IMG/VR virus record: IMGVR_UViG_3300028197_000002
Strand: one strand, 5' to 3'
Length of the DNA stretch: 64,000 nucleotides
Origin: a virus
Lineage: Duplodnaviria; Caudoviricetes
Shown: positions 18,406 through 63,555 of the stretch, piece by piece
Layout: every line of letters starts with the position of its first letter
Numbering within the stretch: position 1 is the stretch's first letter
Program-made: the position numbers and the translations under genes
The notes under the pieces: model-generated
The model's database searches: none
What the model was told of the DNA's origin: nothing
The model's input: the letters and a program-made list of their open reading frames with translations, nothing else

Positions 18406-18798
18406 ATGGACAATTTATCGTTTACTAATTTTTTAAAAAATGAAGAAGCTGGACTTCTAGATGCTCTAAGCCAGCAATTAAATATTAATTTAGATGATCT
18501 TAAAAAAGACCCTAAATTAGCATCTTTCTATTCGTTTGGAGCAATTACTCATAATATTGGTTCTTACGTGATTTTAGATTATAAAAAAAATAGAGAAGGG
18601 AAAATAACTCATGCATTAGTTAAACAAATAAATGATCCAAAAATGAAAAATGTTCAATATCGAAACAATAACATTGTGAAAAATTCTCACGCAAATAAAA
18701 AGTTTCTTGTGTCAATCGAAGATTTAGAAAAATTAATGCTTCAAGGACAAGACAAACCGGCAGACGCAGGTATGGGAATGATGGGAGGAATGATCTAA
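18406..18798 (+). CDS. Hypothetical, CTS-like N-terminus (putative virion protein)
   Basis: MDNLSFTNFLKNEE; TATATA 5 nt before ATG. Confidence 0.6.
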   Translation: MDNLSFTNFLKNEEAGLLDALSQQLNINLDDLKKDPKLASFYSFGAITHNIGSYVILDYKKNREGKITHALVKQINDPKMKNVQYRNNNIVKNSHANKKFLVSIEDLEKLMLQGQDKPADAGMGMMGGMI

Positions 18799-18983
18799 TG
18801 GTGATGAAATTTAAAGAATGGCTGTTGGCTCAAGAATCCACCACAACAGCATCTGTAGCAACATTTGCTCGCCCAGTAGGAATGATGGTTAGAAGAAAGT
18901 TTTCAAATCCAATAGCAATAAATCCTAAAGATGATGCAAAAAGCATTGTTAAAAAATTAAAACTTTTAAACATTGATGAATAA
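18798..18983 (+). CDS. Small CTS-like putative internal head protein
   Basis: MKFKEWLLAQE N-terminus. Confidence 0.6.
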   Translation: MVMKFKEWLLAQESTTTASVATFARPVGMMVRRKFSNPIAINPKDDAKSIVKKLKLLNIDE

Positions 18984-19034
18984 TAACTTTTCAAATACAA
19001 TGACTTTATTAAAATCTTAAATTAGAGAAGTTAT

Positions 19035-19898
19035 ATGTATATTCTTGAACAGTACGACGCGTCCTTAAGAGACATTTTGCGTATAGGCGTTTATCAAAAA
19101 AATAGAACAAACCATGCCGCGTTGTCTGTTTTTGGTATGCAAAAAAAGTACAGAATTGATGAGTATTTTCCTCTATTGACGGGTAGGAAAATATGGCCAA
19201 AAGCCATCTTTGCAGAGCTTCTTTGGTTTATCTCTGGATCTACAAATAACAATAATCTTAGATCTTTAGGTTCTAAGATTTGGGACTTATGGTCTAATGA
19301 AGAATTTGAAAAAGAAAATGGCTATGAGAAAGGAAGCTTGGGTCCTTTGTATGGCTTTCAATTGCGTCATTTTGGAGGAAGCTATAACAAAGGCGTAGAA
19401 GACGAAGTTGGTTATGGCCATGGAGGATTTGATCAATTAGAAAATATGGTTAATTTGTTGAAGACAGATCCTAATTCTAGAAGAAACTTATTTTCTTTAT
19501 GGAATCCAAATCAAATAAAAGATATGAGATTGCCTCCATGTCACTATACGTTTCAAGTTTATGTTAATGAAAATAAATTAAGTGGAATGCTGACTCAAAG
19601 ATCTTGCGATTTTCCTATCGGCGCACCAGCAAACATCCAATTTTACTCTTCTTTGATTTACATGCTGGCCCAACAGTGTGGATACGAACCTTATGAGTTT
19701 ATTCATTCTGTTGGAGATGCTCACATATATGTAAATCAAATAACGCAAGTAGAAAAATATTTAGAACGAAAGTCCAAGCCTGAATCGCCTAAATTAAATT
19801 TAAAAAAGGCTAAAGACATATATTCATATTCATTGAGTGATTTTGAAATTGAAGATTACAATCCATTGAATCCTATATCCATTCCTGTTGAAGTTTAG
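19035..19898 (+). CDS. thyA: Thymidylate synthase
   Basis: ELLWFISG, LGPLYG, RLPPCH, QRSCD, conserved Asn (PANI), GDAHIY. Confidence 0.95.
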   Translation: MYILEQYDASLRDILRIGVYQKNRTNHAALSVFGMQKKYRIDEYFPLLTGRKIWPKAIFAELLWFISGSTNNNNLRSLGSKIWDLWSNEEFEKENGYEKGSLGPLYGFQLRHFGGSYNKGVEDEVGYGHGGFDQLENMVNLLKTDPNSRRNLFSLWNPNQIKDMRLPPCHYTFQVYVNENKLSGMLTQRSCDFPIGAPANIQFYSSLIYMLAQQCGYEPYEFIHSVGDAHIYVNQITQVEKYLERKSKPESPKLNLKKAKDIYSYSLSDFEIEDYNPLNPISIPVEV

Positions 19899-19901
19899 TT
19901 A

Positions 19902-21833: not shown

Positions 21834-22052
21834 ATGAAATTCACAGACTGGCTAGAAATTAGAGAGAACCAAGCAGCAGCGCTCAACAAAACTGCTTTAA
21901 ATATGTTGAAGCGTGGCAATGATAAAAATGTAGGAAAAAAGATAGTTGGAATGTATGACCGTTCTTTAAGACAAGCTAAAGACATAAAAACAGCGGCAGC
22001 TTTAGCCGGAGCAGCAGCCGCAGTTAAAAAATCTCTTGGAATAGATAAATGA
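21834..22052 (+). CDS. Small CTS-like putative internal head protein
   Basis: MKFTDWLEIRE; Ala/Lys-rich. Confidence 0.6.
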   Translation: MKFTDWLEIRENQAAALNKTALNMLKRGNDKNVGKKIVGMYDRSLRQAKDIKTAAALAGAAAAVKKSLGIDK

Positions 22053-22177
22053 AATTCAAAGAGTGGCTAATTTTAAATGAGAAAAAAGGCCCTAAGCCTA
22101 ATTTTCTAAAGCCTAAAGGATTTGTAAAGCCTGCTTCTCCTCATAAAATCAAAAAAGCAACTATATTAAATGTGTAA
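22049..22177 (+). CDS. 42-aa basic CTS-like peptide (not in track)
   Basis: MKFKEWLILNEKKGPKPNFLKPKGFVKPASPHKIKKATILNV; overlaps flanking stop/start codons. Confidence 0.6.
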   Translation: MKFKEWLILNEKKGPKPNFLKPKGFVKPASPHKIKKATILNV

Positions 22178-25328: not shown

Positions 25329-27392
25329 ATGAGCATATTACAAAAATATTCTGACAGATTTAACAAAGATCAATTTGTAAAATTAAATGAAGAAATGTCT
25401 TTTGATGATTATTTGACAAAAGTTAAACAAAACCCTAATTTAGCAAGAACTGCCTATCAATATCTTTATGATATGATATTGTCTAAGGGCACGTCTTCTG
25501 TTCAAAGATTTAAAAAAAAATATGTTCATTATAATTTCTTTGATGATGTAGAAGGTCCTATTTTTGGTTTAGATGAAACTCTTCACCAACTAGTTCAATT
25601 TTTCAAAGGTGCTGCTGGAGGCTATGGTCCTGAAAGAAGAGTTCTTTTGCTGCATGGACCTGTAGGTTCTTCAAAATCAACTATTTTAAAATGCATTAAA
25701 AAAGGCTTGGAAAAATATTCATTGTTGGATGAAGGCGCGTGGTACACATTTAAATGGGTAAACCTTCCAACAGGTAGCGATGATGGGATTTATACATCTA
25801 GTGAAGATGAATCTCCAATGCATGAAAATCCTCTCAAGTTGTTGCCTCCTGACTTAAGAAAAGATTTTCTAGATGAGATCAATTCAGAAAACAATAGATC
25901 TGATGCTGCTTATTCTTTTTCTGTTGATGGCGAATTAGATCCTAGGTCTAAAAAGTTTATGAAAGAACTTCTAATTAGGCATAAGGGAGATTGGGGAGAG
26001 GTTGTAAAAAATCATATAGTTGTGATTAGAAAAACTCACTCAGAAACAGATCGTGTTGGAATTGCAACATTTCAACCAAAAGATGAAAAAAATCAAGATA
26101 GCACAGAGCTTACTGGTGATATTAACTGGGGTAAGCTTCCACATTTCGGAACAGACTCAGATCCAAGAGCTTTTAATTTTGATGGAGAGTTTTGTGTCGG
26201 TAACAGAGGCATTATTGAATTCATAGAAGTTTTGAAACTTGCAAAAGAATTTTTGTATGATCTTTTAGGAGCCTCTCAAGAACGTCAAATTAAACCAAAG
26301 AAGTTTCCTCAAGTTTCTGTAGATACTGTTCTTGTCGGCCACACAAATAATCCAGAGTATGAGAGATTAAAGAGTGATCAAACTATGGAAGCTTTAAGAG
26401 ATAGAACTGTTAAAATAGATGTTCCTTATCTTCTTCGTTGGAGTGATGAATTGAATATATTGGAATATTATTATGGAAAAAATAAAATTAAACAACACAT
26501 AGCTCCTCATACATTAGAGATAGCTGCTCTTTGGTCTGTTCTAACTAGACTTCAAGAAGATAAAGATGGAAAGATTAGTCTTGTTGAAAAAGCCAAACTG
26601 TATGATGGAAGAGCGCTCCCGGGTTGGACTGAAGATTCTGTAAAAGAATTAAGAGATAAGTATACTGAAGAAGGAATGTTTAAAGGAATTAGCTGTCGAT
26701 ATGTCCAAGACAAGATATCTAATTGCCTAAGTTCAGAATACAATTACATAAATTTCTTTATGGTTTTGAATGAATTAAAATCAGGTTTAGATCATCAATC
26801 TTTATTTGATAGCGAAGAGGATAAGTCAAGGTATATTAATTGCATCTCTCTTGCAAAAAATGAATTAGACCAAATTTTAAAGTCGGAAGTTCAAAAGGCT
26901 TTGGTTGGAGACGAGAATGCTATTGAGAGATTGTGTGGAAATTACATAGACAATGTAATGGCCTACATAGAAGGCACAAAGATTAAAAACCCATTTACAG
27001 AGCAAGACCAAGAGCCAGACGAAAGGCTTATGCGTTCCATAGAAGAGAAAATTGATGTTCCTGAAGTTGGAACAGATGATTTTAGAAGGTCTTTAGCAGC
27101 CTTTATTGGAAACTTGGCTCATAGTGGCAAAGAATTCAAATGGGACTCAAACCCTCAACTTAAAAAGGCTCTGGAAGCAAAGTTGTTTGAAGATACAAAA
27201 GATCACATAAAGCTTTCTGCTTTGAGTGTCAAAGGCACAACGGTTGTTGACAAAGAAGTTCAAGAAAAAATAGACGCAGTCAAAAAGAGACTGATTGACA
27301 GCTATGGGTATAACGAACAATCTGCAACAGATGTTTTAGATTATGTGGGTTCCATTTTTGCCCGTGGTGATATGGCTGATGATGAAGAATAG
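25329..27392 (+). CDS. prkA: PrkA/YeaG family AAA+ (serine kinase-annotated) protein
   Basis: LHGPVGSSKST, ESPMHENPL, KDEKNQDSTELTG, NRGIIEFIE, EALRDR, GIS.RYVQ. Confidence 0.95.
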   Translation: MSILQKYSDRFNKDQFVKLNEEMSFDDYLTKVKQNPNLARTAYQYLYDMILSKGTSSVQRFKKKYVHYNFFDDVEGPIFGLDETLHQLVQFFKGAAGGYGPERRVLLLHGPVGSSKSTILKCIKKGLEKYSLLDEGAWYTFKWVNLPTGSDDGIYTSSEDESPMHENPLKLLPPDLRKDFLDEINSENNRSDAAYSFSVDGELDPRSKKFMKELLIRHKGDWGEVVKNHIVVIRKTHSETDRVGIATFQPKDEKNQDSTELTGDINWGKLPHFGTDSDPRAFNFDGEFCVGNRGIIEFIEVLKLAKEFLYDLLGASQERQIKPKKFPQVSVDTVLVGHTNNPEYERLKSDQTMEALRDRTVKIDVPYLLRWSDELNILEYYYGKNKIKQHIAPHTLEIAALWSVLTRLQEDKDGKISLVEKAKLYDGRALPGWTEDSVKELRDKYTEEGMFKGISCRYVQDKISNCLSSEYNYINFFMVLNELKSGLDHQSLFDSEEDKSRYINCISLAKNELDQILKSEVQKALVGDENAIERLCGNYIDNVMAYIEGTKIKNPFTEQDQEPDERLMRSIEEKIDVPEVGTDDFRRSLAAFIGNLAHSGKEFKWDSNPQLKKALEAKLFEDTKDHIKLSALSVKGTTVVDKEVQEKIDAVKKRLIDSYGYNEQSATDVLDYVGSIFARGDMADDEE

Positions 27393-27395
27393 TAG

Positions 27396-27403
27396 TATAA
27401 ATA
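27396..27403 (+). promoter_or_regulatory. T4-type late promoter motif
   Basis: TATAAATA immediately before yeaH. Confidence 0.4.
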
Positions 27404-27415
27404 GAGAGAATTTAA

Positions 27416-28594
27416 ATGCCACGTCGAATCGAAGAAGATCACAAAGACTTCCATGATGTATATGCTGGTCGAAAGAGAAAAGAATTAAAAAAATTCATAA
27501 AAAATGGAAGCATATTTAAAAATCGAGGTAAAAATGGAAAGATTGTATTAACAATCCCAAAAATTGACATTCCCCATATTGTTTATGGAAGCGACGGTTC
27601 AGGAGGAATTGGTCGAGGGGAAGGCGAAGAAGGAAAGGTTATTGGAAAAGAGAAGGAAGAAGGAGATGGCAAAGGAAAGGCTGGAAATGAGTCTGGAGAG
27701 GGAATAGACATTGCCGTTGATCTTGAAGAGATTCTTAAGTTTCTTCAAGATGAATTAGATCTTCCTGATATGAAGCCAAAGCCGAGTGATACATATGAAG
27801 ATGTGATAAAAAGATACAATAACATATCTTTAACAGGACCAGAGTCTTTAAGGCATAACGCAAGGACTTTGAGACAAGCTCTCAAAAGACAATGCGCGGA
27901 TGGTTCCATACACAAATTGCATGACATTCCCGGATTCGCCCAGCCTATAAAGTTGATAACGCCTATAAATAGCGACAAAAGATATAGGCAATTCAATGAA
28001 ATAAAAATACCTTCTAGCAATGCTGTTATATTTTTTGCTAGGGATGGGTCTGCTTCTATGGATCAATCCAAGTGTGACATAGTTAGTGATATGTGCTGGT
28101 GGATTGATGTTTGGATAAGAAAGTTCTATGAAAAAGTAGAAAGAGTTTATGTATGGCACGACACAGTGGCAAAAGAGGTTGATGAGAAAAAGTTTTATAA
28201 ATACAGATATGGAGGAGGAACTGTTTGTTCTGAAGCTTTAAAGCTTGTGTCTTCTATGTTTGAAAATAGATTCAATCCTTCAAAGTGGAATATCTATTTA
28301 TTTTATTTTACGGATGGAGATAATTGGTCTGGCGATAATGAAAAATTCATTAAAATGTTGAAAGAAGATTTTAACGTTAATGTCGTCAATATGGTTGGGA
28401 TAACTCAAGTTTTATCTTATAACTATGACAGAAGTCTGAAGCAGGCTGTAGATAAAAATGATTTTAAAAATGTTAAAACAACACAAGTTTCGTATGAACA
28501 AGATCAATACATGAACATATCAGAAGAAGATAGAGATAGGCAAATTAAAGAAGCTGTTGTTGATCTCTTGGGAAAGGAGAAAGTAAATGAGTAA
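27416..28594 (+). CDS. yeaH: YeaH/YhbH (DUF444) vWA-like protein
   Basis: Gly-rich GRGEGEEG segment, LDLPDMKPK, RDGSASM, YGGGT..S.AL, YFTDGDNW. Confidence 0.92.
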   Translation: MPRRIEEDHKDFHDVYAGRKRKELKKFIKNGSIFKNRGKNGKIVLTIPKIDIPHIVYGSDGSGGIGRGEGEEGKVIGKEKEEGDGKGKAGNESGEGIDIAVDLEEILKFLQDELDLPDMKPKPSDTYEDVIKRYNNISLTGPESLRHNARTLRQALKRQCADGSIHKLHDIPGFAQPIKLITPINSDKRYRQFNEIKIPSSNAVIFFARDGSASMDQSKCDIVSDMCWWIDVWIRKFYEKVERVYVWHDTVAKEVDEKKFYKYRYGGGTVCSEALKLVSSMFENRFNPSKWNIYLFYFTDGDNWSGDNEKFIKMLKEDFNVNVVNMVGITQVLSYNYDRSLKQAVDKNDFKNVKTTQVSYEQDQYMNISEEDRDRQIKEAVVDLLGKEKVNE

Positions 28595-32968: not shown

Positions 32969-33729
32969 TTATTTAGGAATTAAAAATTTTACTCTGACTT
33001 TATATGGGAAGCTTTGCGATCCTACGATTGCTTCTTGTTGATTATATTTACTTATAATCAATTTGTCAGCTTTGGGAAATAAAGATTTCATCCCTTCAAC
33101 TTTGTATCCTTTTGCTTTTAAGAAATCATTTAGTTTTTTCTCTATTTGATTTTTAGCATCTTTTTCACTTGAAGCAGTAATAACACCTGAGATATCAGCG
33201 ACAACTTCTATTCCACCTGTGCCTAAGTCTTCTGATTGTATGACGTCTATCATTGTGTCGCTGAATGTGACTTTTGATACGCCATCTTTTATTTCTTGAA
33301 TGTGTTTTGTGATGACTTGAGTATCGGCTTTCATTTTTGCCCCAAGTTTAAATAGTCTTTCTTCACTTGGAGATCTTTTGTCTCCAAAATCATATTCTAA
33401 ACTCGGTCGATTTTTTTTAAGCCAATCCCTATCTTGCTTAAAATCTTTTACGGCTTGTTTGTCTCCTTGCATGTCCGAGTAGGAATATGCATATTGTTGT
33501 TGATTTGGAGATTGTGCGGACACTTGTCCTATTCCAGCACCAGCCATTGCCGCAGCTAATGTTGCAGCCTTAGCTGTCTTTCCTAGTTTTGATTTTCCTA
33601 GCTTTTGTAACAATCCCGCTTCTAATAGATCAACAAGTTGCTCTTGAGTAGGTTCATCGTATCCTTCTTCGATAAGAATAGACTTGATAACTTTTATATC
33701 TTTGTCTTGTGTGTATTCTTTGAATGTTT

Positions 33730-33733
<4 letters not shown>
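32969..33733 (-). CDS. CTS-like putative virion protein with internal signal-peptide-like segment
   Basis: MKTFKEYTQD; LLEAG then KTAKAATLAAAMAGAGIGQVSA. Confidence 0.7.
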
Positions 33734-35028
<1,295 letters not shown>

Positions 35029-35058: not shown

Positions 35059-35066
35059 TATTTATA
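35059..35066 (-). promoter_or_regulatory. T4-type late promoter motif
   Basis: TATAAATA on the minus strand 30 nt before the 35028 start. Confidence 0.55.
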
Positions 35067-44772: not shown

Positions 44773-44774
44773 TT

Positions 44775-45560: not shown

Positions 45561-45869
45561 TTATTTTTTAATGTGAGCATCGGCCCATTTTGAGCTTTCT
45601 GGCATTTTATTGTCGTCTGTATACTTTTTCCATTTTTCGTAACTATACAGATCAATATATTCGCTTCTTCTTAATGGTCTATTTTCTTCTGCTTTTTTAA
45701 GAAGTCCTTGTCTTATCTTGTGTAATTCAGGATAGCTCGGACGACCAGAGTTTTGTCCTGCCACAACATTTGCTTTGTTTATTTTCTTTTCAAAAGAATT
45801 GCTAGTTTTTCTTAGATATTCTTTTCTTTCTAAGAAGTCAGAAAATTTTATAAAGCTTTGTTCTTTCAT
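45561..45869 (-). CDS. Basic hypothetical protein, CTS-like N-terminus
   Basis: MKEQSFIKFSDFLERKE; TATATA 8 nt upstream. Confidence 0.6.
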   Translation of the reverse strand: MKEQSFIKFSDFLERKEYLRKTSNSFEKKINKANVVAGQNSGRPSYPELHKIRQGLLKKAEENRPLRRSEYIDLYSYEKWKKYTDDNKMPESSKWADAHIKK

Positions 45870-46793: not shown

Positions 46794-47225
46794 ATGGAGA
46801 GCAAAATGAAAAAAATTATGTCTTTTAAAGATTATGTGTTAACAAAAGAATCAAGTGCTGCAACTAGATTGCGTAGAGATGCTGCTCTTGGCTTAAAACC
46901 ACCAATTCCAGATGCAATGCTTCACAGCAGATCTACAGCTTCTCCATTTGAAGTAAAAGAAATACAAAAGAAAAATAAGAAAAAAAAAATAAGAAAATGT
47001 AGCGAGTCAGTTCGTTCAGCGCCGCAGAAGCCTGATTCTGTAGAAGACGGCCAGTGTCCAGATTGTGGATCGCCAGCTACGCTATATAATTATGGAATAG
47101 ATGCCGGTGGCAATGAGGATCACAGAACTGATTGCAGCAATCCTAAGTGTGATAATTATGGTATAACTAAAAAATCAACACATCTATCGGCTCCTCGTGG
47201 TAGCATGTCTCGTGGATACATGTGA
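46794..47225 (+). CDS. CTS-like protein with C-terminal zinc ribbon
   Basis: MSFKDYVLTKE; CPDCG..CSNPKC. Confidence 0.6.
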   Translation: MESKMKKIMSFKDYVLTKESSAATRLRRDAALGLKPPIPDAMLHSRSTASPFEVKEIQKKNKKKKIRKCSESVRSAPQKPDSVEDGQCPDCGSPATLYNYGIDAGGNEDHRTDCSNPKCDNYGITKKSTHLSAPRGSMSRGYM

Positions 47226-47702: not shown

Positions 47703-47767
47703 GATTTTACTATATTAGGTAAACTCTAGAGTTGGAGATAAGGAGGTGAATTTTCCTCTCTGACACA

Positions 47768-47805: not shown

Positions 47806-47812
47806 ATAAATA
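47805..47812 (+). promoter_or_regulatory. T4-type late promoter of the fibre cassette
   Basis: TATAAATA 5 nt before ATG 47818. Confidence 0.6.
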
Positions 47813-47817
47813 TACTT

Positions 47818-48774: not shown

Positions 48775-48813
48775 CAAAAGAAATAAATTTAATGAGTAAG
48801 CATAGGAGATAAA

Positions 48814-50331: not shown

Positions 50332-50348
50332 TTTTATAGGAGAACATT

Positions 50349-51698: not shown

Positions 51699-51707
51699 GA
51701 GATAAAA

Positions 51708-54605
51708 ATGCCGTTTATGTCGTCTTTTTCGGGATCTTTTGGCGTAGGAAGAAGATCAAATTCAATTAAATTTGGACTTACAAAGCCACATAGAATTATA
51801 GCTCATTATAGTCCCGGTAATTCTAGTAGTTATGGCGGAAGTGGAGCAACATTAGTAGATTTAACAAACAATAATTATGATGCAAATATTGTAGGAAGTC
51901 CTCCTTTTAACACAGATAACTTTCTTATTGAATCTGGAGATTACATATCTACGCCTTCACTAGACGCAGACATTAATAGCAGTAGTGAAAATCATACTTT
52001 GGAAATATGGTGCTATCCAACAGGAGATGGTGTTGTTGCTCAATATTGTGGTCAAGTAACCCCAAACACAGGTTATCACCACTCGGCAATAGAGATAGTA
52101 TCTGGACAAGTGGAATTTGGATTATTGAGCATAAGTAGCCTTGTTAGTTCTGGGCCTACTGGAAGCATAAATTTAAATACTTGGAATCAAATAGTTTTAA
52201 CATATGACGGTTCTTACATTAGAGGTTTTGTGAATGGCCAAAGAGTTACAAAGACTTCGGTTTCGTGGACATCCCCAGCAGATGGCAGCTTGCCATTACA
52301 TATGGTTTTTGGAGCATCTGCCACAACGAACCAAGGAGACGGAACTGATTTTGATGGAAATTTAGGAATTATTAGGATTTACGATAGGAAGTTAAGTCGT
52401 AGTTCAATTTTAAGAAATTATAAACATGATTTAGAAACTCACTCTGCAATTGTTATAACGGACACTCCAGATGGATTTGATGATCCTGTTGTGTCTGGAG
52501 AGATGGCAACAAGTACTTTGTTGGGCGGCGTGGATGATTCTGTTGCAGCATTAACAGCAAAACTTAAACCTAATCATAGGTTTATTGTTCCTGCTAGTTG
52601 GATTGAGAGTAATGTTTTGCCTAATCTTTCTTCAGATCAATCCAAAGTTTTTTTTGGTGTTCCAAAAGATAGTGCCAATTGGAGTGATGTTGCATTGTCA
52701 GATGATTTTTGGGCGGTGTTTAGGATTGAAAGAGATAGCTCAACACAGCATAATTCTTATTTAAATATTACAGGAAGCAGTCCTGATTATGATGAGGCCA
52801 CTGTTTCATCTTTATCATCTGCTTTTTATGATTATGCAATTGAATGGGACGGAAGCAATCTTCATGTAATTGCCACCACTTCAAATGACATTAGCACTCA
52901 AACTGGTGTTTCTGATGGTGGTTCTTTCACTAGGGTTGCAACCTACAGCAATTTTGCCTCAGAGCAGAGCAAGGTGAATGATGAGCTAACGCTTGTTATT
53001 GCTGTTGATGACGGCGGCAAGGTTGAACTTTCAGACACAGGGCTTAGTCAGATTAGAATACCTTGGAATACATCTACAACTGTTCTTTGTGGCGAATCCA
53101 GTAGTGGAAATGGAAACTATGGTTTTGTTAATGAGTCTACGTTTGATGAATCGGGCCAACACGCACCGAGTGGCTTGTCTTATAGTGGAATTAGCTCTCT
53201 GAACGCTGGAGAAACTTACAAATTCATTTATGATCCATCAATGGAATCATCAGATTATATAGAGTTTAGGCTAGCGGAAGATGCCACTACCGTCTACACC
53301 CAAGGAATCACCACTTTTGATGGCACAAACTCTGGCGATCCAAACGCGGACCAAAACTACAAAGGAATTATTTTTACTGTTCCTGCCGATGTTCCTCCAC
53401 TAAGACTTTACCACTACAACAGCCATGGATCAGGATCTTATGACAACGGACGATATATAGATATGATTGGATCATCTGTTACATATGCAGTAGCTCCTGT
53501 TTCTACAAGTCAAGACGAAGGGACAGCTTTACAGTTTAATGTTACAACAACAGACGTTCCTGATGGAAAAACTATTTATTGGACGGCGAATCACTCATCA
53601 ACATCGGACGCAGATTTTGTAGAAAAATTGTTTAGCGTAACGGCGGGAAGTACAACTATATCAAATAATTCTGCTAGTTTTGATGTAACATCAGTGGCTG
53701 ATTCACTAACTGAAGGAAGCGAAACTTACTTTGTTGAAGTGCGTATAGGTATTGGTCAGACTATAGGGCTGATTGTTGCTACTAGTTCTACTGTAACTGT
53801 AAATGACACAAGTCAAAATGCATGGGACCCATCAACAGACATAACAACAGCTGCTTGGATTGATGCGTCAGATTCTTCAAATTACACAAGAAGTGGAACA
53901 TCACTACTTTCTGTGAACGATAAAGCAGGAACTTACACAATGTCAGTTGGTGGCAATCCTGTTACTAATTCAAGCACTCAAAACGGATTAAATATATTTG
54001 ATTTTGATGGTAATGGTGATTATCTACAAAGTACAACTTATTCAACACAAGCATCATCTGGTAATCATTGGGCAATCGGAGTTTTCAGGTATGAAAATGT
54101 AGACAGTAATAAAGATACTATTTGGAGTTATGAAACAAATGGTTCACCAAAACGAGATTATGCAATGAGTAGTGGCAACTCATCATCATGGACAGGAGAA
54201 TTAGATTTAGATGGTTTATCTAGCAATAGAATTAGTAGTTCAATCGGTAATGCGGAAGTTTGGAATTTGAAAAGTTTAACAAAAAACCAATATCATATAG
54301 TTGCTTGTTGGTTCAATAAGACAGGAAATCAAATTGGCGTTAGAATAGATGGTTCAAATGCATTCACACCAGTAAATGATTATGATAATTCATTGCAAAC
54401 AAACCAAGAATTAAGATTGATGAGAAACAGGTCGTCACAATCATTAGATGGAAAATTATCAGAGTTTTTTGCGGTGGCAGGTATTCCCGGTACAAGCGGA
54501 ACTGACTTGACTCATTTAATAAAAGCAGAAGGATATTTGGCTCATAAGTGGGGATTGGCGGGAAGTTTGCCAAGTAGTCATGCTTATAAAAATAGCGCTC
54601 CTTAA
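51708..54605 (+). CDS. Large adhesin-like protein with LamG/concanavalin and Calx-beta-like domains
   Basis: MPFMSSFSGSFG leader; WNQIVLTYDG..FVNG..IRIYDR; DEG..FNVTT; AWIDASD..EGYLAHKWGL. Confidence 0.75.
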   Translation: MPFMSSFSGSFGVGRRSNSIKFGLTKPHRIIAHYSPGNSSSYGGSGATLVDLTNNNYDANIVGSPPFNTDNFLIESGDYISTPSLDADINSSSENHTLEIWCYPTGDGVVAQYCGQVTPNTGYHHSAIEIVSGQVEFGLLSISSLVSSGPTGSINLNTWNQIVLTYDGSYIRGFVNGQRVTKTSVSWTSPADGSLPLHMVFGASATTNQGDGTDFDGNLGIIRIYDRKLSRSSILRNYKHDLETHSAIVITDTPDGFDDPVVSGEMATSTLLGGVDDSVAALTAKLKPNHRFIVPASWIESNVLPNLSSDQSKVFFGVPKDSANWSDVALSDDFWAVFRIERDSSTQHNSYLNITGSSPDYDEATVSSLSSAFYDYAIEWDGSNLHVIATTSNDISTQTGVSDGGSFTRVATYSNFASEQSKVNDELTLVIAVDDGGKVELSDTGLSQIRIPWNTSTTVLCGESSSGNGNYGFVNESTFDESGQHAPSGLSYSGISSLNAGETYKFIYDPSMESSDYIEFRLAEDATTVYTQGITTFDGTNSGDPNADQNYKGIIFTVPADVPPLRLYHYNSHGSGSYDNGRYIDMIGSSVTYAVAPVSTSQDEGTALQFNVTTTDVPDGKTIYWTANHSSTSDADFVEKLFSVTAGSTTISNNSASFDVTSVADSLTEGSETYFVEVRIGIGQTIGLIVATSSTVTVNDTSQNAWDPSTDITTAAWIDASDSSNYTRSGTSLLSVNDKAGTYTMSVGGNPVTNSSTQNGLNIFDFDGNGDYLQSTTYSTQASSGNHWAIGVFRYENVDSNKDTIWSYETNGSPKRDYAMSSGNSSSWTGELDLDGLSSNRISSSIGNAEVWNLKSLTKNQYHIVACWFNKTGNQIGVRIDGSNAFTPVNDYDNSLQTNQELRLMRNRSSQSLDGKLSEFFAVAGIPGTSGTDLTHLIKAEGYLAHKWGLAGSLPSSHAYKNSAP

Positions 54606-54631
54606 AAAGATTTTTAAAAAACTTTAAATCG

Positions 54632-54659
54632 TTGCACATTTAATGCAAATTGATATAAT
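54632..54659 (+). promoter_or_regulatory. Sigma70-like promoter of infC overlapped by an inverted repeat
   Basis: TTGCAC-N16-TATAAT, extended -10 TG; TTGCA-N7-TGCAA. Confidence 0.5.
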
Positions 54660-54674
54660 TAAAAACAACAAAAC

Positions 54675-55187
54675 ATGAAAAGATTTGATTCAAATAAACC
54701 AGTCGGTCCTAGAAAAAACGAGCAGATTCGTTTTTCTACGGTTCTTGTAATTCACGGAAGTGAAAATTTGGGAGTTATGCATCCCAAAGAAGCTTTAAAA
54801 ATAGCAAAATCTCACAAACTTGATCTTGTCGAGGTTTCTCCCGATGCCAGACCTCCAGTTTGTAAAATAATGGATTATGGAAAATATAATTATTCAAATT
54901 CTAAATCTAAACAAAAAAACAAAAAACAAAAGACCAAAGAGGTTCGAATATCATGCAGAATTGGCGAGCATGATTTATTGACTAAAAGAAATTTAGCTGA
55001 AAAATTTCTAGGCCAAGGTCATAAAGTTTTGTTGAAATTAGAACTAAAAAGAAGAGAAAATATGTATAAGAATATTGGATTTTCTATGGTGAAAAAGTTT
55101 TGCGAGTATTTTGATGATTTTTCAATTAACAGACCTAATTTAGATGGAAGATTCATTACTTGTGTGATTGAGCCAAAAAATGTTTAG
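54675..55187 (+). CDS. infC: Translation initiation factor IF-3
   Basis: NEQIR, DLVEVSPDARPPVCKIMDYGKY, KEVR..IGEHD..GHKV..RRE. Confidence 0.92.
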   Translation: MKRFDSNKPVGPRKNEQIRFSTVLVIHGSENLGVMHPKEALKIAKSHKLDLVEVSPDARPPVCKIMDYGKYNYSNSKSKQKNKKQKTKEVRISCRIGEHDLLTKRNLAEKFLGQGHKVLLKLELKRRENMYKNIGFSMVKKFCEYFDDFSINRPNLDGRFITCVIEPKNV

Positions 55188-56088
55188 ACAAATAAAGAAT
55201 TATTCTCCAAAAGTAATTCACAAAACTCTTGGCGAGGTTGGTCTTGACTTTTATAACTTTGCCGATCAGATAGACCTAGATCACCCTGACATTAATTACT
55301 TTTCTTTTTCTGATAAAATTAATCAGTCTTTTTCTTTGGTGGATCTAGCAATAAAAAATAATTTATCAGATTCTATTGACGGAATAGAAAATCTTTACTT
55401 CAAAGAGATTGAATTTTATAAAAAAATACATTGCTTGGAAAAAGCTTTTCCTAGATTTCTTAATTCTAGGAAAAAGATAGAAATGATAAGGAGATCTAAA
55501 AAGATTTCTGATGTTTTTTTAAGCACATTTAAAAAAACTCCTAGAACTATTTGGGACAACCTTCCATTTGATTTTGAAATTTTTCTAAAGAACAAAAGCT
55601 ATGAAAAATATTTAAAAGAAGCCGAAGAAACTTCGTGTAAATTTAGATATTTTGGATGTGATCAGATGGCAGATCACATAGATGATAATTTAAATAAAAT
55701 AAAATCTATATTTAAAAATAATTATTTTGGATACAAAGAACTAAGCATTTCAAATGCGGCAATCATTCTGGCTAAGATGCATGAGTTTAAATTAAGAAAT
55801 AATCATCGTGATTGTTCAATTTATTATAAAAAATTAAATTACAAACCAAAAGTTTATCCTATTCATGAGCTTGGTAGCATAAAAACAAAAAGGTTTACTA
55901 ATTTAATGGGTAGATTAGAAGAAAAGCCTCTTTTTGATCATTATTTTGTTGTTGTTCCTTCTTATTCTAATGATGGCAAGAATTTTTCTAATAGTGAAAT
56001 ATTGAATAAAATATCTAAAAATGATATCGTACCTGTAATTATGGGCGAAAGAGGTTTTAAGACTTATTTTATTTCTTATTGGATCTAG
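55180..56088 (+). CDS. Hypothetical protein
   Basis: ~300-aa ORF coupled to infC. Confidence 0.7.
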   Translation: MFRQIKNYSPKVIHKTLGEVGLDFYNFADQIDLDHPDINYFSFSDKINQSFSLVDLAIKNNLSDSIDGIENLYFKEIEFYKKIHCLEKAFPRFLNSRKKIEMIRRSKKISDVFLSTFKKTPRTIWDNLPFDFEIFLKNKSYEKYLKEAEETSCKFRYFGCDQMADHIDDNLNKIKSIFKNNYFGYKELSISNAAIILAKMHEFKLRNNHRDCSIYYKKLNYKPKVYPIHELGSIKTKRFTNLMGRLEEKPLFDHYFVVVPSYSNDGKNFSNSEILNKISKNDIVPVIMGERGFKTYFISYWI

Positions 56089-56097
56089 GAGTTGTAG

Positions 56098-56442
56098 ATG
56101 AAAATAGATGTAAATTTTAAAATCTCGGATAGTGCGGCGAAAGAGCTTAAAAAAGCCATGAAAGAATCAGACTCGGAAGGATCAAATGTAAGAGTAGGAG
56201 TTCAAGGAGGAGGTTGTTCAGGATTCATGTATCAATTGGGTTTTGAAGAAGCAGAAACTTTCAATGAAGAAAATGATATTCTTGAAATCCAAGAAGGAAT
56301 TAATGTTGTGATAGATAAGAAATCTGCGATTTTTTTGAATGACGTTATTTTAGAGTGGGTTGAAGACTTAAATCAAAGAGGATTTAAGTTCAATAATCCT
56401 AATGCAAACAAAAGTTGCGGTTGTGGTCAATCGTTTAGTTAA
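56098..56442 (+). CDS. iscA: IscA/ErpA (HesB family) Fe-S carrier
   Basis: GGGCSGFMY, NPNANKSCGCGQSF. Confidence 0.93.
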   Translation: MKIDVNFKISDSAAKELKKAMKESDSEGSNVRVGVQGGGCSGFMYQLGFEEAETFNEENDILEIQEGINVVIDKKSAIFLNDVILEWVEDLNQRGFKFNNPNANKSCGCGQSFS

Positions 56443-56455
56443 ACAAGGTGTTTTT

Positions 56456-56842
56456 ATGAAGAATATAATTATTAGTAAAGATGAGTTAATTGAGCTGTGT
56501 GCCACTTCGTATGAGGTAGGGCATAGAGGATACGCCGATCAGTCAAATGATTTTGTAGAAAATTTAGTAGAAGACTTTCTAAAAGAGGTAGATTCCCCAG
56601 AAATATCAACTCGTTTGAAACCTAGCGTGAGTTCGAATGAAATCACATTTTGGGGAGGGGATGTGCCCGGAAACACTGACAATTCAGTGTTAAGCTATGG
56701 TGATTCTATTAGCGATCATCAAAGCATTGTTGTTACTGCTAATCCAAACTACGATGTTTCGGCATATACTTCCACTGCTCAAATAGAAATTCCGGAATAT
56801 GATTCCACTTTAAATTTAACTGTTGATAAAAACGAAACATAA
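56456..56842 (+). CDS. Hypothetical protein
   Basis: Start ATG 56456 (SD AAGGTG). Confidence 0.65.
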   Translation: MKNIIISKDELIELCATSYEVGHRGYADQSNDFVENLVEDFLKEVDSPEISTRLKPSVSSNEITFWGGDVPGNTDNSVLSYGDSISDHQSIVVTANPNYDVSAYTSTAQIEIPEYDSTLNLTVDKNET

Positions 56843-57362: not shown

Positions 57363-58304
57363 ATGAAAGATTACTATAAAGTTTTATGTGTTTCTATTGA
57401 TTCTAGCAAAGAAGAAATAGAGAGAGCGTATAGAAAACTTGCATTTAAATACCACCCCGACAGAAATATTAATTTAAAAGCTGCTACTAAAAAATTTTTA
57501 GAAGTTCAAGAAGCTTATGAATATTTAAAAAATAAAAAAACATCGTTTACTTTTAAGAAAAATAAAGTAGACGATGTTTTTGACAATATATTCTCTAAAT
57601 TTTTTGGTGATCAAAAAAAAGAAAACAACTCCACAAAAGTAAGATTAAAAATATCGTTAGAGGAATGTTATAAAGGTTGCGTCAAAGATGTTTTAATTGA
57701 CGAGCATTCTTTTTGCGAAAATTGTCAAGGTACGGGTGGAGTTAAATGGGATCATTGCGACAAATGTAGTGGCAAAGGATTTGTTTATGAAGGTGGAATT
57801 GTTTCTATACAATCTTGCTGCATATTTTGTGAAGGTAAAGGCTGTTGTATAAAAGAGAAATGTCTTGATTGCAAAGGGAATGGATTTTTAGTCAAGTCTA
57901 AAAAGAAAGTTTCTGTGACTGTTCCCAAAGGCATAAAAGATGAAACTCAAATAAGAATACCAGAAGCTTCTTTTGGAGAAGATTTGTATGTAGTTGTAAA
58001 TGTTCAAAAAGGAGATTTTTCAAGAAAAGATCAAGATTTAATTTCTGATCTTTATGTTCCTTATTCGAAATTGGTCTTGGGTGGAGTTGTGAATTTTGTT
58101 CTGTTTGATGAAAAAATAGAAGTAAAAATTAAGCCAAGAACACAGCCGGGATCTACTTTGCTAATTAAAAACAAAGGGTTTTCTTTTGTTGAAAATAAAA
58201 CAAATAAAGGAAATTTAATTTTTAATATAAAATTAAACATACCAATTTCTATTAATAAAAAATATAAAGATCTTCTTGAAAAATTATCTGAGTTTGATAA
58301 ATAA
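57363..58304 (+). CDS. dnaJ: DnaJ chaperone
   Basis: J domain YHPDRN; four CxxCxGxG repeats; C-terminal domain. Confidence 0.93.
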   Translation: MKDYYKVLCVSIDSSKEEIERAYRKLAFKYHPDRNINLKAATKKFLEVQEAYEYLKNKKTSFTFKKNKVDDVFDNIFSKFFGDQKKENNSTKVRLKISLEECYKGCVKDVLIDEHSFCENCQGTGGVKWDHCDKCSGKGFVYEGGIVSIQSCCIFCEGKGCCIKEKCLDCKGNGFLVKSKKKVSVTVPKGIKDETQIRIPEASFGEDLYVVVNVQKGDFSRKDQDLISDLYVPYSKLVLGGVVNFVLFDEKIEVKIKPRTQPGSTLLIKNKGFSFVENKTNKGNLIFNIKLNIPISINKKYKDLLEKLSEFDK

Positions 58305-58322: not shown

Positions 58323-58544
58323 ATGAATAATAAAAACTTGATCGTGGCAGCAGTTACTCTTACTGTAGTTTTGTTTGCAACTATATCTTTTAATTTAGTT
58401 GTGAATCAAATTGCAGATAGGGTAATTCAAAAGTTGAAAAGAGATTATGTTCCCGGACCATACCAACCCGGATTTGACCCTGACAAAGTTGACCCAGCTA
58501 TTTTTAGGTCAGACTTTTCAAAGGCTAAGTTTCTTGAAGATTAA
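58323..58544 (+). CDS. Small membrane-anchored protein
   Basis: N-terminal TM; Pro-rich tail; TAAATA and SD GGAG. Confidence 0.65.
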   Translation: MNNKNLIVAAVTLTVVLFATISFNLVVNQIADRVIQKLKRDYVPGPYQPGFDPDKVDPAIFRSDFSKAKFLED

Positions 58545-58969
58545 TCTACTTCTATTTTTTGTATTTTAGAAGGTTCTTTTGTTAGATCGTCTTCGGATCT
58601 TTGAAAGATGACAGTTATTCTTTTACCTATTTCGGGTGTTTTTTGAATTCTGTTGAATTGATCTAAACTTAAATATAACTTGGTTCCATCTTTTAGTCCT
58701 ATGCAAATAGGATTGCTGTTTATGTCTATTTCAGATATAAACGAGCTTCTTACTACTTGTGGAATTAGAAGATCTAGTCGAGGCCCAACACCACCCAATT
58801 GATCAAAACGGCCCCAATTAGGCCCAGACCCAGTCCATGTGGCGGGAACTACTGCGCTTGTTGCAAAGTCATTATGTTTTCCCGGTGTTAATGGAAGGTT
58901 TTTTCCATGTGGAGTACGTGGCCTTTGATAAGCTCTTTCTGTTAAATGTAACCATTCTTTAAAATTCAT
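58541..58969 (-). CDS. CTS-like hypothetical protein
   Basis: True start MNFKEWLHLTE at 58969; TAAATA 5 nt upstream. Confidence 0.7.
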   Translation of the reverse strand: MNFKEWLHLTERAYQRPRTPHGKNLPLTPGKHNDFATSAVVPATWTGSGPNWGRFDQLGGVGPRLDLLIPQVVRSSFISEIDINSNPICIGLKDGTKLYLSLDQFNRIQKTPEIGKRITVIFQRSEDDLTKEPSKIQKIEVD

Positions 58970-59000
58970 AACTATATTTATTATAGCTGAGAGGAAAATT

Positions 59001-61056: not shown

Positions 61057-61550
61057 AAAAATCAAAAATAAAAACAAATATAAAAGGTGTTGTTTTTTTT
61101 GAACTAGAGAGTTTTGATGATGGTAGAGGATCTCTTACGGAACTTTTTAGGCATGATTGTTTAGATAATCACAACTTCCCAGTTATGGCTTATTTAAGTG
61201 AAACAAAGCCAAATGTTTCCAGAGGTCCTCATGAGCATGAAGACCAATCAGATTTATTTTTTTTCGCAGGACCAGCAGATTTCAAATTGGTTCTTTGGGA
61301 AAAAAGTCAACAGTTTGTTGATTTGGGATGTGAAACGCAAGGATTGTACAGGGAAGAGCATATTGTGGGTGTGAGTAACCCTACAGGAGTTATCGTTCCT
61401 CCCGGAGTTATACATGGATATAAAAACATATCAGATGTTTCCGGCTTAGTTATAAATGCTCCAAATAAACTATACGCAGGTCCCGGAAAATTATACGAGG
61501 TGGACGAAATAAGGCATGAAGATGAAAAAAACACAGATCTTATTATTTAA
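61053..61550 (+). CDS. rmlC: dTDP-4-dehydrorhamnose 3,5-epimerase (RmlC-like cupin)
   Basis: DGRGSLTELFR, SRGPHEHEDQ, VPPGVIHGY. Confidence 0.85.
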   Translation: MKKSKIKTNIKGVVFFELESFDDGRGSLTELFRHDCLDNHNFPVMAYLSETKPNVSRGPHEHEDQSDLFFFAGPADFKLVLWEKSQQFVDLGCETQGLYREEHIVGVSNPTGVIVPPGVIHGYKNISDVSGLVINAPNKLYAGPGKLYEVDEIRHEDEKNTDLII

Positions 61551-62499
61551 TATTTTTATTTATTTGGTTTTGACAAATCTTGTTTTGTCTCAAGAAAAAA
61601 CAGGATTTGCCATAGATCCAAGTGCAAATAACATTGCGGTTCTTTTCACTATGACGGACGAAAGTGGAAGAACGCGTAATTTAGATTTGATAGAATCAGT
61701 TTTTAAAGATGGAGCTTTAGGTTTTAAGGCTCAAAGATATCATAACGTTTCTTCTCCTTTTATTTATAATAAGCTAACAGAGATTTCTGAAAAATTAGAC
61801 GACAATGCTACCTTGCTCTGTTATTTTAACAGTCATGGAGGAGGAAGCGGTAATAGATTTATAATGAGTGCTAAAGGTGGAAATTTTAAATTTAGCAAAG
61901 CTTTGGATGCTATTAAGAAAGGCAAGAAAGTTAAGAGATTAGTTTTTCTAGTAGACACTTGTCATGCCGAAGGCAGCATTCAAGATTCTACTGGTCAAGA
62001 TGGTGAATTATTAAAAAATTTAAGAGATGCAACCCCTACTGAGTTTCTTCCAGAGTTGCCTGACACTTATGACTCAAAGGACTTGCCTTTCACTGCAAGT
62101 TTTATTGAAAGCCGACTTGAAAAAAGAGGTTATAAAACTTATAGAGTTACAAATAGAGTTATTGACTACGGTCAGGAAAGTGGGGCTTATGATGAAATAT
62201 TAATTATTAGTTCTTCGAGTGTTGAGAAGGTTTCGTACAGAGGAGTTTTTGCTTCTCGTTTAAATTCTACTTTCCAGAAAGTAAAAGAAGATAATGAAGT
62301 GACAGTAAATCAATTTTTAAAGAAGTTCGCGGATAGCCATTCTAAGAGTGGACAACAACCGCACTACAAACTTCTTCCTGACAAGACGATGCTTGAAGAA
62401 CCTTTATTTGGTCCTTGGCTCGCGCAGGTTTTGCCAATCATGGAAAATGGCAAAAGAAAAGAATTAGGGTATAATTTCATACCAATGCCAAGTAAATAA
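61516..62499 (+). CDS. Caspase-like (clan CD) cysteine peptidase with N-terminal signal peptide
   Basis: YFNSHGGG (His) and LVDTCHAEG (Cys); IISSS..SY..G.F; hydrophobic N-terminus. Confidence 0.75.
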   Translation: MKMKKTQILLFNIFIYLVLTNLVLSQEKTGFAIDPSANNIAVLFTMTDESGRTRNLDLIESVFKDGALGFKAQRYHNVSSPFIYNKLTEISEKLDDNATLLCYFNSHGGGSGNRFIMSAKGGNFKFSKALDAIKKGKKVKRLVFLVDTCHAEGSIQDSTGQDGELLKNLRDATPTEFLPELPDTYDSKDLPFTASFIESRLEKRGYKTYRVTNRVIDYGQESGAYDEILIISSSSVEKVSYRGVFASRLNSTFQKVKEDNEVTVNQFLKKFADSHSKSGQQPHYKLLPDKTMLEEPLFGPWLAQVLPIMENGKRKELGYNFIPMPSK

Positions 62500-62509
62500 A
62501 AGGCGATTA

Positions 62510-63127
62510 ATGTTCAATAATTTTGATATAGATTCTAGGCTTAGAATAAGCCCTAAATCTTTTCCTGATTTTTTTGCGGCTCCTGTAACTCTTTATGTGA
62601 ATGATTTTGATGAAGAATCAGTGGTTAAATTTAAAAAAGAAATGGAGTTGGCTCAGAACACAAATCAGGACATAATTCCTATAGTAATAGACTCTTATGG
62701 GGGGCATGTTTATAGTCTGCTTGCTATGATAGACATAATAGAACAATGTCCAGTTACAGTGGCAACTATAGGTCTAGGAAAAATGATGAGTTGTGGAAGT
62801 GTTTTATTGACTTGTGGTGATGAAGGATATCGCTTTGCAAGTCCAAACTCCACAGTCATGGTTCATGATGTTTCTTCTTGGACTTCAGGGAAAAATGAAG
62901 AAATTCAGTCTAGTGCTGCTCAAACAAACAAGTTGAATAAAAAGATTTTTGAAATCATGTCTGTTAATTGTGGTCATCATAAATCTTATTTTTTAGATAA
63001 GCTTTTTGAAAAGCATCATGCTGAGTGGTATCTTTCTTCAAAAGAAGCCAAGAGAGAAAATATTATACAATATATAAAAACTCCTTCATTTAACATAAGC
63101 ATTAATGTGAACGTGGATTTTAGTTAA
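62510..63127 (+). CDS. clpP: ClpP-like protease subunit 2
   Basis: IDSYGG, GKMMSCG (Ser), MVHD (His), EWYLSSKEA. Confidence 0.85.
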   Translation: MFNNFDIDSRLRISPKSFPDFFAAPVTLYVNDFDEESVVKFKKEMELAQNTNQDIIPIVIDSYGGHVYSLLAMIDIIEQCPVTVATIGLGKMMSCGSVLLTCGDEGYRFASPNSTVMVHDVSSWTSGKNEEIQSSAAQTNKLNKKIFEIMSVNCGHHKSYFLDKLFEKHHAEWYLSSKEAKRENIIQYIKTPSFNISINVNVDFS

Positions 63128-63555
63128 TTTATTTTTTCTAAAAAATTAATTAATTTTTTATTTTTATATGTTTCAAGTTTGTTCTTAGCATATTTATTTG
63201 CATAAAATTGACAAAATAATTCTACCTGATTTTCTTTTTTATTTTTGTTATCTTTTGTTAATTTTAACCAAACGTCTATCTTATCATTAGGCAGTTTGTT
63301 CCAAACTAGATGCCCTATTTCATGAAGCAAAGCATATTCTCGGCTATAGTTCCAAGGCGCAGATATCTTTATTAACTTTTTATTTTCATCATAAAATCCA
63401 ATATGCTTTGAATCATTTTTCAAAGTATTGTACGGTTCAAATTCGATTTTGAAATCAGCAACTAGTTTTTGATGGCTTTTTGGTATCTTTTCTAATGTTT
63501 TATTCACATCATTAGTGCTGTATTCGAAATTTTCTATAAAAAGTCTGAAATTCAT
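63124..63555 (-). CDS. Zinc metallopeptidase-like protein (HExxH)
   Basis: Reads on the minus strand (track label wrong); LLHEIGH plus downstream ELFC; ATAAATA twice upstream. Confidence 0.75.
   Translation of the reverse strand: MNFRLFIENFEYSTNDVNKTLEKIPKSHQKLVADFKIEFEPYNTLKNDSKHIGFYDENKKLIKISAPWNYSREYALLHEIGHLVWNKLPNDKIDVWLKLTKDNKNKKENQVELFCQFYANKYAKNKLETYKNKKLINFLEKIN

Follow-up and report, generated by a model that had tools for sequence, protein, structure and literature searches.

In the 64,000-nucleotide stretch of the IMG/VR virus record IMGVR_UViG_3300028197_000002 (Duplodnaviria; Caudoviricetes), which was analyzed at its full length and is called the window below, ten open reading frames (ORFs) between positions 18,406 and 63,555 begin with a short peptide tag that resembles the capsid targeting sequence (CTS) of the internal proteins of bacteriophage T4. 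Sequence comparisons make it likely that these tags are working T4-type capsid-targeting propeptides, used on a much larger scale than in T4, and many small proteins, unrelated to each other, are probably packaged along with the phage DNA. In the proposed mechanism, the first 10 to 14 residues would form an amphipathic segment (Met and one or two polar residues, then two aromatics separated by two residues, then Leu or Ile) that would dock the protein on the scaffolding core during prohead assembly; a gp21-type prohead serine protease would then cut after the Glu of a [Leu/Ile]-x-Glu site, freeing the payload within the head. Tagged genes would be made late, many from a T4-type late promoter, [C/T]ATAAATA, placed either approximately 25–30 nucleotides (nt) before a Shine-Dalgarno sequence or 4–6 nt before the ATG of a leaderless message. 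Since the payloads are unrelated to each other and mostly short and basic, most would probably lie with the packed DNA, like the T4 internal proteins; some may exit at infection.

Peptide tags and their likeness to the T4 targeting sequence

All ten N termini listed in the first-pass annotation are present in the ORF translations exactly as given. Named by the positions of their starts, six ORFs carry clean tags (18804, 21834, 22049, 35028, 46818, and 58969) and four carry variants (18406, 33733, 45869, and 63555). The tagged ORFs, together with two of their upstream boxes, are as follows (slash, predicted cut; pI, isoelectric point):

18406..18798, plus strand: ORF of 130 residues; variant tag MDNLSFTNFLKNEE, with the core (SFTNFLKNEE) five residues after Met
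18804..18983, plus strand: ORF of 59 residues; clean tag MKFKEWLLAQE; located at the stop of the 18406 gene
21834..22052, plus strand: ORF of 72 residues; clean tag MKFTDWLEIRE; mature pI 10.4
22049..22177, plus strand: ORF of 42 residues; clean tag MKFKEWLILNE
32969..33733, minus strand: ORF of 254 residues; IPI-type variant tag MKTFKEYTQD
33730..35028, minus strand: ORF of 432 residues; clean tag MRSFSEFLKE/S with exact T4 spacing
35059..35066, minus strand: TATAAATA box (T4 late-promoter consensus), beginning 38 nt ahead of the start codon at 35028 and followed by AGGAG
45561..45869, minus strand: ORF of 102 residues; weakest member, with the core KFSDFLERKE eight residues after Met
46818..47225, plus strand: ORF of 135 residues; clean tag MSFKDYVLTKE/SS
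58541..58969, minus strand: ORF of 142 residues; clean tag MNFKEWLHLTE
58975..58981, minus strand: ATAAATA box, separated by 5 nt from the ATG of 58969 and lacking a Shine-Dalgarno sequence, a leaderless-type arrangement
63124..63555, minus strand: ORF of 143 residues; variant tag MNFRLFIENFE, lacking the acidic residue

To place these peptides against the model system, it is useful to recall that IPII and IPIII start with MKTYQEFIAE in the T4 record and IPI with MKTFKEFT. Ten residues of the T4 CTS are enough for loading; residues 4 and 7 are the main determinants of targeting, residues 8 and 10 determine processing, and Asp at position 10 stops cutting while loading is unaffected (PMC9026906). 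The aromatic-x-x-aromatic arrangement of the targeting positions is found in all ten window tags, generally with a hydrophobic residue next. The closest single match is MKTFKEYT of 33733, identical to IPI MKTFKEFT in seven of eight residues, and the spacing of MRSFSEFLKE (35028) is exactly that of MKTYQEFIAE. The commonest local form, MKFKEWL-x-[LI]-x-E, is shorter by one residue ahead of the first aromatic and longer by one ahead of the Glu. Within the 33733 tag, Asp stands where the Glu of T4 position 10 would be, and the pairing of Thr and Asp at the positions of the processing residues is the T4 IPI pattern; candidate later cleavage sites in this protein, read from its sequence, are LIE and LLE/A. 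The proposed likeness to the T4 CTS is real and specific: the residues mapped by mutagenesis in T4 are kept, those for processing in a looser register.

The anatomy of the tags was compared between 90 unique tags, from the window and its relatives, and 150 internal copies of the same five-residue core. A [LIVMF]-x-Glu site lies within eight residues downstream in 60% of tags versus 21% of internal copies (p 1e-9), and any downstream Glu in 79% versus 36%; Trp occupies the second aromatic position in 57% versus 23%. The first Phe is at position 4 in 58 of the 90 tags and at position 3 in 30.

The frequency of the motif beside start codons far exceeds its background. A strict pattern, [KRNST]F[KRTSQ][DE][WFY][LIVT], searched in the six-frame translation of the window, gave nine matches, eight of which coincide with or lie close to the initiator Met of a plausible ORF. 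When start-adjacent and internal occurrences of a relaxed core, [FWY]x[DEQN][WFY][LIVMT], were compared, eight start-adjacent matches were obtained in 93 window ORFs versus 0.18 expected from the internal rate (Poisson p 2e-11). This corresponds to an approximately 45-fold enrichment, and start enrichment was likewise found in every relative tested. One of the eight matches (45053, minus strand) is spurious, and the 18406, 45869, and 63555 variants fall outside this pattern. Among the 274 ORFs of the whole T4 genome, the relaxed core returned only IPI, IPII, IPIII, and gp61.1, and the pattern is therefore specific for the known T4 CTSs. The fourth of these, the hypothetical protein gp61.1 (54 residues; NC_000866 18966–19130, L324), adjoins the primase gene and begins with a perfect CTS-like tag, MKTFKEFIKE. 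Tagged ORFs make up 8.6% of the total in the window, 3–9% in six relatives, 2.5% in LR756511 (the nearest deposited phage, 595 kb, uncultured, with a DnaE identity of 41%), and 1.5% in T4. The heptapeptide MKFKEWL occurs at ORF starts in 20 cases in the viral contig collection, mostly on unrelated proteins; in prokaryote genomes (596 Gb), 19 such ORF starts were counted among the 80 loci analyzed of 111 matches, and ten of the 19 represent one bacterial gene family. MKFKEWL at ORF starts is a virus feature.

These data bear directly on the idea that the motif has no function as a peptide and reflects chance, the remnant of a duplicated family, or a nucleotide signal such as a translation start or a recombination cassette. 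A/T-rich codons could indeed favor initiation, but the Poisson value above was reached in the window alone; the payloads are, as the first-pass annotation had claimed, unrelated to each other (no BLASTP pair at E <0.5 among the ten); the downstream Glu is specific to the N-terminal copies; and the motif is found in genomes ranging from 33% to 55% G+C. Furthermore, synonymous codons are free while residue classes are kept: all six Leu codons and both codons each of Phe, Glu, and Asp are used in the tags, and Trp, Phe, and Tyr interchange at the aromatic positions. Because the codons vary synonymously, selection acts on the peptide and not on the DNA, and an explanation without peptide function is close to refuted.

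Conservation within families follows the same lines. Three IMG/VR contigs (G001, G002, and G003) are syntenic with the window at 65–77% nucleotide identity, and their orthologs retain the tag while linkers and payloads change. Orthologs of 18406 in all three contigs retain LSF-x-x-FLK-x-EE, indicating that the inset form of this tag is conserved; in four orthologs of 18804, FKEWL and the Glu are retained and the remainder is divergent. The 35028 orthologs (G001 and G002) retain M-[KR]-S-F-x-[ED]-[FY]-L with a different linker, and the 46818 ortholog in G001 retains the tag and the following ~35 residues. The 22049 gene has orthologs in all three contigs, and no ortholog of 45869 was found among them. 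In wider families, M1, F3, and E11 of 58969 are invariant in 11 homologs, one branch of which has a 14-residue insertion directly after the Glu, and F3 of 63555 is at least 90% conserved among 26 members. In AlphaFold models of the 63555 and 58969 proteins, the tag is placed outside the fold. For 63555, tag residues 1–7 have pLDDT values <50 against a model mean of 82.6; the 58969 model comprises a short N-terminal helix, a disordered linker of ~60 residues, and a confidently predicted C-terminal beta domain.

As with T4-type CTSs, the tags are N-terminal, but the cores of 18406 and 45869 lie five to eight residues in, and two starts are ambiguous: that of 18804 is possibly at 18798, and that of 46818 is uncertain by four to eight residues, with in-frame ATGs at 46794 and 46806.

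Payloads of the tagged genes

The carriers of the tag are diverse, mostly small, basic, and fast-changing, as expected of a T4-type CTS. The mature payload has a pI of 9.0–10.9 in nine of the ten window proteins, versus 19–25% of the untagged window proteins (p 3e-5); examples are 9.3 for 18406, 10.3 for 18804, and 10.9 for the 31-residue mature part of 22049. Clade-wide, 54% of tagged versus 24% of untagged proteins have a pI of at least 9.0 (p 1e-9), and the median length is 130 residues for tagged proteins versus 174 for the others. The exception in the window is the hyperacidic 432-residue protein of 35028 (pI 4.1), in which a conserved middle domain is followed by an acidic run of ~150 residues and a conserved basic C-terminal end. 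The run consists of loosely repeated units almost exclusively of Asp, Glu, and Met and is shorter in the G001 and G002 orthologs; it recalls the acidic tail of T4 gp67. Only viral hypothetical proteins and a poor model were found for this protein in the ESM Atlas, and it gave no match when used as a query for related loci. Internal [LI]-x-Glu sites are present at an observed-to-expected ratio of 1.00 in payloads versus 1.30 in other proteins (p ~0.003), which fits avoidance of stray protease sites, with composition and fold class as confounders.

Searches of the ten tagged proteins against Pfam and PHROGs gave no match above the cutoff, and tblastn with the 46818 protein gave none among cultured phages. 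The sole window payload with a recognizable activity is that of 63555, which looks like a small putative zinc metallopeptidase of the gluzincin type: its HEIGH motif and a downstream Glu are invariant in 26 homologs (HExxH...E). Its fold matches to M34-type zinc peptidases are weak (E 5e-3, TM 0.5–0.6), its Pfam hit is below the cutoff, and one source names a homolog an ImmA/M78 peptidase. An identical protein is encoded on a 259-kb JGI contig, and a homolog with 99% identity on a 303-kb contig. For 20 tagged proteins of relatives, Pfam gave one clear match besides weak ones, namely PolyA_pol in a protein of contig G007, whose head domain is of the poly(A)-polymerase/CCA-adding type (78.5 bits).

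Several observations suggest that tag and payload modules are shuffled as units. A domain with the signature DACYHKVK is a stand-alone tagged protein in G001 and G003 and occurs in 365 phage records, nearly all from cyanophages; in the two of these that were read, S-SM1 and S-SM2, it is untagged and lies within a larger structural-region protein of cluster T4-GC119. In addition, tag-like cores are present inside longer ORFs of relatives, at G001 96992–98143 (L052) and G002 10319–10729 (L054). Examples are a core behind an unrelated 188-residue domain, in G001, and ahead of an HExxH domain. These internal cores may reflect gene fusion, a missed non-ATG start, or a polyprotein. The T4-GC119 proteins, whose genes lie between gp16 and gp17, consist of small Cys-containing modules in series:

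S-SM2 91801–93927 (L069): T4-GC119 protein
S-SM1 98536–100023 (L070): T4-GC119 protein

The first-pass annotation regarded the set as a possible arsenal of packaged, injected effectors. The analysis bears this out only in part: one payload has a recognizable activity, and some of the others may be head-core or DNA-coating proteins. An injected effector arsenal is a reasonable but unproven reading of the sequences. The opposite emphasis would be that the tag loads the prohead, while most of the cargo consists of head-core, scaffold-accessory, or DNA-charge-balancing components that are not injected effectors and are degraded, expelled, or left with the DNA, like the gp67/gp68 fragments, IPII, and IPIII of T4. 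Many payloads are indeed tiny basic peptides (31–61 mature residues), one is hyperacidic, a tagged protein of ~110 residues is fixed beside the head module in 56 loci (see below), and what IPII and IPIII do in T4 has yet to be resolved (PMC9026906). However, enzymes such as the putative zinc metallopeptidase and the G007 protein would be poor packing material, and payload turnover between close relatives is high, as expected for conflict genes. We regard this account as unlikely, although part of the tagged set may be head-core or DNA-associated proteins.

Upstream boxes and head machinery

It had been claimed that TAAATA, TATATA, or TAGATA precedes most of the tagged genes. This is too loose, because TAAATA alone occurs 140 times in the window, and yet the underlying enrichment is real once relatives are pooled. 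The pooled ORFs came from the window and from six relatives, 61 of them tagged and 871 untagged; within 50 nt upstream, [CT]ATAAAT precedes 23% of tagged versus 7% of untagged ORFs (p 1.5e-4) and TATATA 33% versus 9% (p 1e-6), while the sigma-70-type TATAAT is present ahead of 11% of both (p 1). Late-type boxes are enriched 3- to 5-fold upstream of tagged genes, which points to late expression. Exact TATAAATA has 16 copies in the window, three of them before genes, and is too rare to test alone. A late-type box is also located ahead of the tail-tube gene of G003 and of a tail-fiber operon at window position 47818.

The distance between ATAAATA and ATG is bimodal: 4–6 nt without a Shine-Dalgarno sequence in nine cases and 24–30 nt with one in five. 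Transcription from T4 late promoters starts a few bases past TATAAATA, so boxes 4–6 nt from the ATG would give leaderless late messages. In the window, [C/T]ATAAATA or TATATAT lies 4–12 nt before the ATG, with no Shine-Dalgarno sequence, at 18406, 21834, 45869, 47818, and 58969, and late-type boxes at such distances are seen at many loci of G001–G008. Specifically, TATATAT is found 6–12 nt before the ATG of 18406 (no Shine-Dalgarno sequence) and 9–15 nt before that of 45869; ATAGATAG is found 9–16 nt before the ATG of 21834, again with no Shine-Dalgarno sequence. Two ATAAATA boxes start 23 and 32 nt upstream of 63555, and CATAAATA occupies the place of the 35028 box in the orthologs of that gene. 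Three tandem pairs account for six of the ten tagged genes, and a late-type box heads each pair; 18406 is the first gene of one such pair, in which the members are 5 nt apart, and the other two overlap stop to start, as where the ATG of 22049 overlaps the stop of 21834 (ATGA). Five of the ten tagged genes are on the minority strand versus 9 of 79 other genes (p 0.008).

Genes for a T4-type head were found in the relatives. In LR756511, portal-like, scaffold-like, and capsid genes surround a Peptidase_S77 gene (95.9 bits), and two large tagged ORFs lie directly after the capsid gene. Its protease has 260 relatives in IMG/VR, of which the best 80 of 260 are 57–86% identical, and two of the protease relatives are on contigs that also bear MKFKEWL-tagged genes. 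A gp21-type protease and a scaffold are encoded by G006 and its near copy L157, by LR756511, and by G007, G008, and G009. The module order in L157 is portal, a divergent 111-residue tagged gene, a 612-residue protein, protease, scaffold, and capsid protein. The L157 protease is 33% identical to T4 gp21 (E 4e-24), in an alignment spanning the stretches around the His and Ser that we take to be catalytic, and its capsid protein is 29% identical to T4 gp23 (E 2e-39). Since G006, which encodes the Peptidase_S77 protease, is syntenic with the left part of G003 (65–69% identity in 13 blocks) and G003 is syntenic with the window, the window lineage very probably has T4-type head assembly as well.

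The tagged gene of the L157 module (7597–7932, minus strand) belongs to a fast-evolving family of ~110 residues located between the portal gene and the 612-residue gene on the opposite strand. The gene at this position is nearly always tag-initiated in 56 IMG/VR loci. In 28 aligned members with a mean identity of 24%, M1 and F4 are the only invariant or near-invariant columns; the proteins also end in a conserved V-x-P-x-x-A-D. A complex prediction with two scaffold copies (60-row alignment) and the first 35 residues of this head-module tagged protein scored 0.01 with a poorly folded partner and is evidence for neither side. The adjacent portal-like protein of L157 (4821–7346, 841 residues) has an apparent intein-type insert, with a Cys-led block and a His-Asn end that is followed by Cys. 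Elsewhere, an island of eight tagged genes (154–486 residues) with no significant Pfam match, all but one on the same strand, was found at 44396–56773 (L190) of G008, a 181-kb fragment that also carries a gp21-type protease.

A further alternative is that the tag is an N-terminal handle unrelated to the head, such as a ClpP degron, a docking site for a DnaJ-type chaperone, or an address for another part of the virion, and that its likeness to the CTS is convergent. ClpP, a caspase-like peptidase, and DnaJ are encoded near tagged genes in the window, tagged gp61.1 of T4 sits among replication genes, and the binding of the tag to scaffold is itself inferred. Against this, the residues that mapping in T4 identified as functional are precisely those that match, with up to seven of eight identical; the tag is linked to late-type and not to sigma-70 boxes and, by gene position, to the head module; and the lineage has T4-type protease, scaffold, and capsid genes. 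A handle of this kind therefore appears distinctly improbable.

Weight of the evidence, genomic setting, and known systems

Several points weigh against reading the tags as working targeting propeptides. Scaffold binding, cleavage, packaging, ejection, and an effector role are all inferred from sequence. The tag alone is no proof of packaging, because gp61.1 of T4 carries it and is not known to be packaged; this protein may be an overlooked fourth T4 internal protein or a warning about the tag as proof. With 5–9% of ORFs tagged, each head would have to hold dozens of different cargo proteins, many more than has been shown for T4. The Glu register is loose (three to five residues past the second aromatic), ~40% of tags have no clear [LIVMF]-x-Glu, and a recognizable late box is present on only 23–37% of tagged genes. 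The internal cores of G001 and G002 are unexplained by a simple N-terminal model. The protease and scaffold of the window genome itself were not seen, nor was a head module found in the three closest IMG/VR contigs (G001–G003). Finally, the ORF sets come from a crude caller and include spurious ORFs, and the untagged baselines are rough.

The targeting-propeptide reading can be extended to propose that, in huge T4-related phages, the tag is a general address label by which dozens of proteins, including enzymes, would be made late, often from leaderless messages, loaded, trimmed, and delivered. We advance this extension tentatively, with somewhat more doubt than belief. The mechanism of the tag is itself already known from T4. 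In the literature searched, the T4 CTS was treated only for T-even phages and, by analogy, for SPN3US-type phages, and no description was found of its occurrence in huge marine phages, the large share of ORFs that carry it, its shorter register, or the start-adjacent late boxes; the window lineage is not clearly described in the "moraphage" paper (PMC12619734). Should the tags function as they do in T4, sequence alone would suffice to predict which proteins an uncultured huge phage carries in its head, and, if they are a general address label, the sequence of such a phage would reveal every protein that it injects. This cargo would exceed that of any studied phage several-fold, would supply a ready list of candidate proteins for first-minute host takeover and counter-defense, and could account for some of the additional genes that huge phages carry. 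Natural variants of the tag would also become available as new peptides with which to load foreign proteins into phage heads. The combination of a tag with a late box at the start codon suggests that there is a class of leaderless late messages, for which metatranscriptomes offer a check.

The 64-kb window has a G+C content of ~33% and encodes a DnaB-type helicase, a gp32-type single-stranded DNA-binding protein, a UvsX-type recombinase, and a two-piece DnaE-type polymerase, along with PrkA, DUF444, SpoVR, DnaJ, ClpP, and tail-fiber-like proteins. The polymerase is divided between two genes, 31262–32659 (the PHP domain and the start of the NTPase domain) and 36131–38746 (the remainder). The 3.4-kb insert between them holds an 85-residue ORF, two minus-strand tagged genes, of which 33733 is the second gene of the pair, and an AAA ATPase (35151–36140); both the split and the insert are kept in G001 and G002. 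A complete PrkA/DUF444 (YeaH-like)/SpoVR trio is located in this phage DNA at 25329–30191, with a TATAAATA box 20 nt ahead of the DUF444 gene. An internal MSFDDYL in PrkA resembles the tag and belongs to the conserved kinase. A protein-quality-control cluster at 57363–58304 and 61516–63999 comprises DnaJ, a caspase-like Peptidase_C14, ClpP, and PhoH, and the tagged HExxH gene lies between ClpP and PhoH on the opposite strand.

Among known systems, the T4 CTS is the closest. In both cases, an N-terminal peptide of ~10 residues is carried by unrelated, small, basic proteins; its positions 4 and 7 are aromatic, position 8 is hydrophobic, and position 10 is Glu. Both the IPI-type (MKTFKEFT) and the IPII/III-type (MKTYQEFIAE) forms have counterparts here, and in the relatives the tag occurs together with a protease of the gp21 type, a scaffold like gp22, and a capsid protein of the gp23 type. 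In contrast to T4, the present phages tag 5–9% rather than 1.5% of ORFs, commonly use the shorter register Met-x-Phe in place of Met-x-x-Phe with the Glu one residue later, favor Trp at the second aromatic, and place the late box of many tagged genes just 4–6 nt from the ATG. Moreover, the phage described here is a huge marine one with a split DnaE-type polymerase and is known from sequence alone.

The propeptides of T4 Alt, gp24, gp67, gp68, and gp22 are likewise short, N-terminal, core-tethering, and removed by gp21 after a hydrophobic-x-Glu end, and the acidic run of gp67 resembles that of the 432-residue protein. Unlike the tags, these propeptides lack the aromatic-x-x-aromatic arrangement and are found on conserved structural proteins rather than on a changing accessory set. 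In SPN3US and phiKZ, a large set of head-loaded proteins is trimmed after Glu by a gp21-related protease, and many are ejected into the host (PMC5694885, PMC7411985); their propeptides are mostly 80–130 residues long, with no shared short tag (PMC5694885). The leaders of the window, by contrast, have 10–14 residues and are common to unrelated proteins, which sets them apart from the SPN3US/phiKZ type. More distant parallels are the encapsulins, whose cargo-loading peptide is usually at the other end of the protein and is not removed by a protease, and phage P1, in which the Dar proteins are loaded in a DarA/Hdf-dependent manner through adaptor proteins, again with no protease removal of a tag. 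As proposed here, a short peptide or an adaptor selects the contents of an HK97-fold shell in these systems; the sequences differ, and the resemblance is one of analogy, not kinship.

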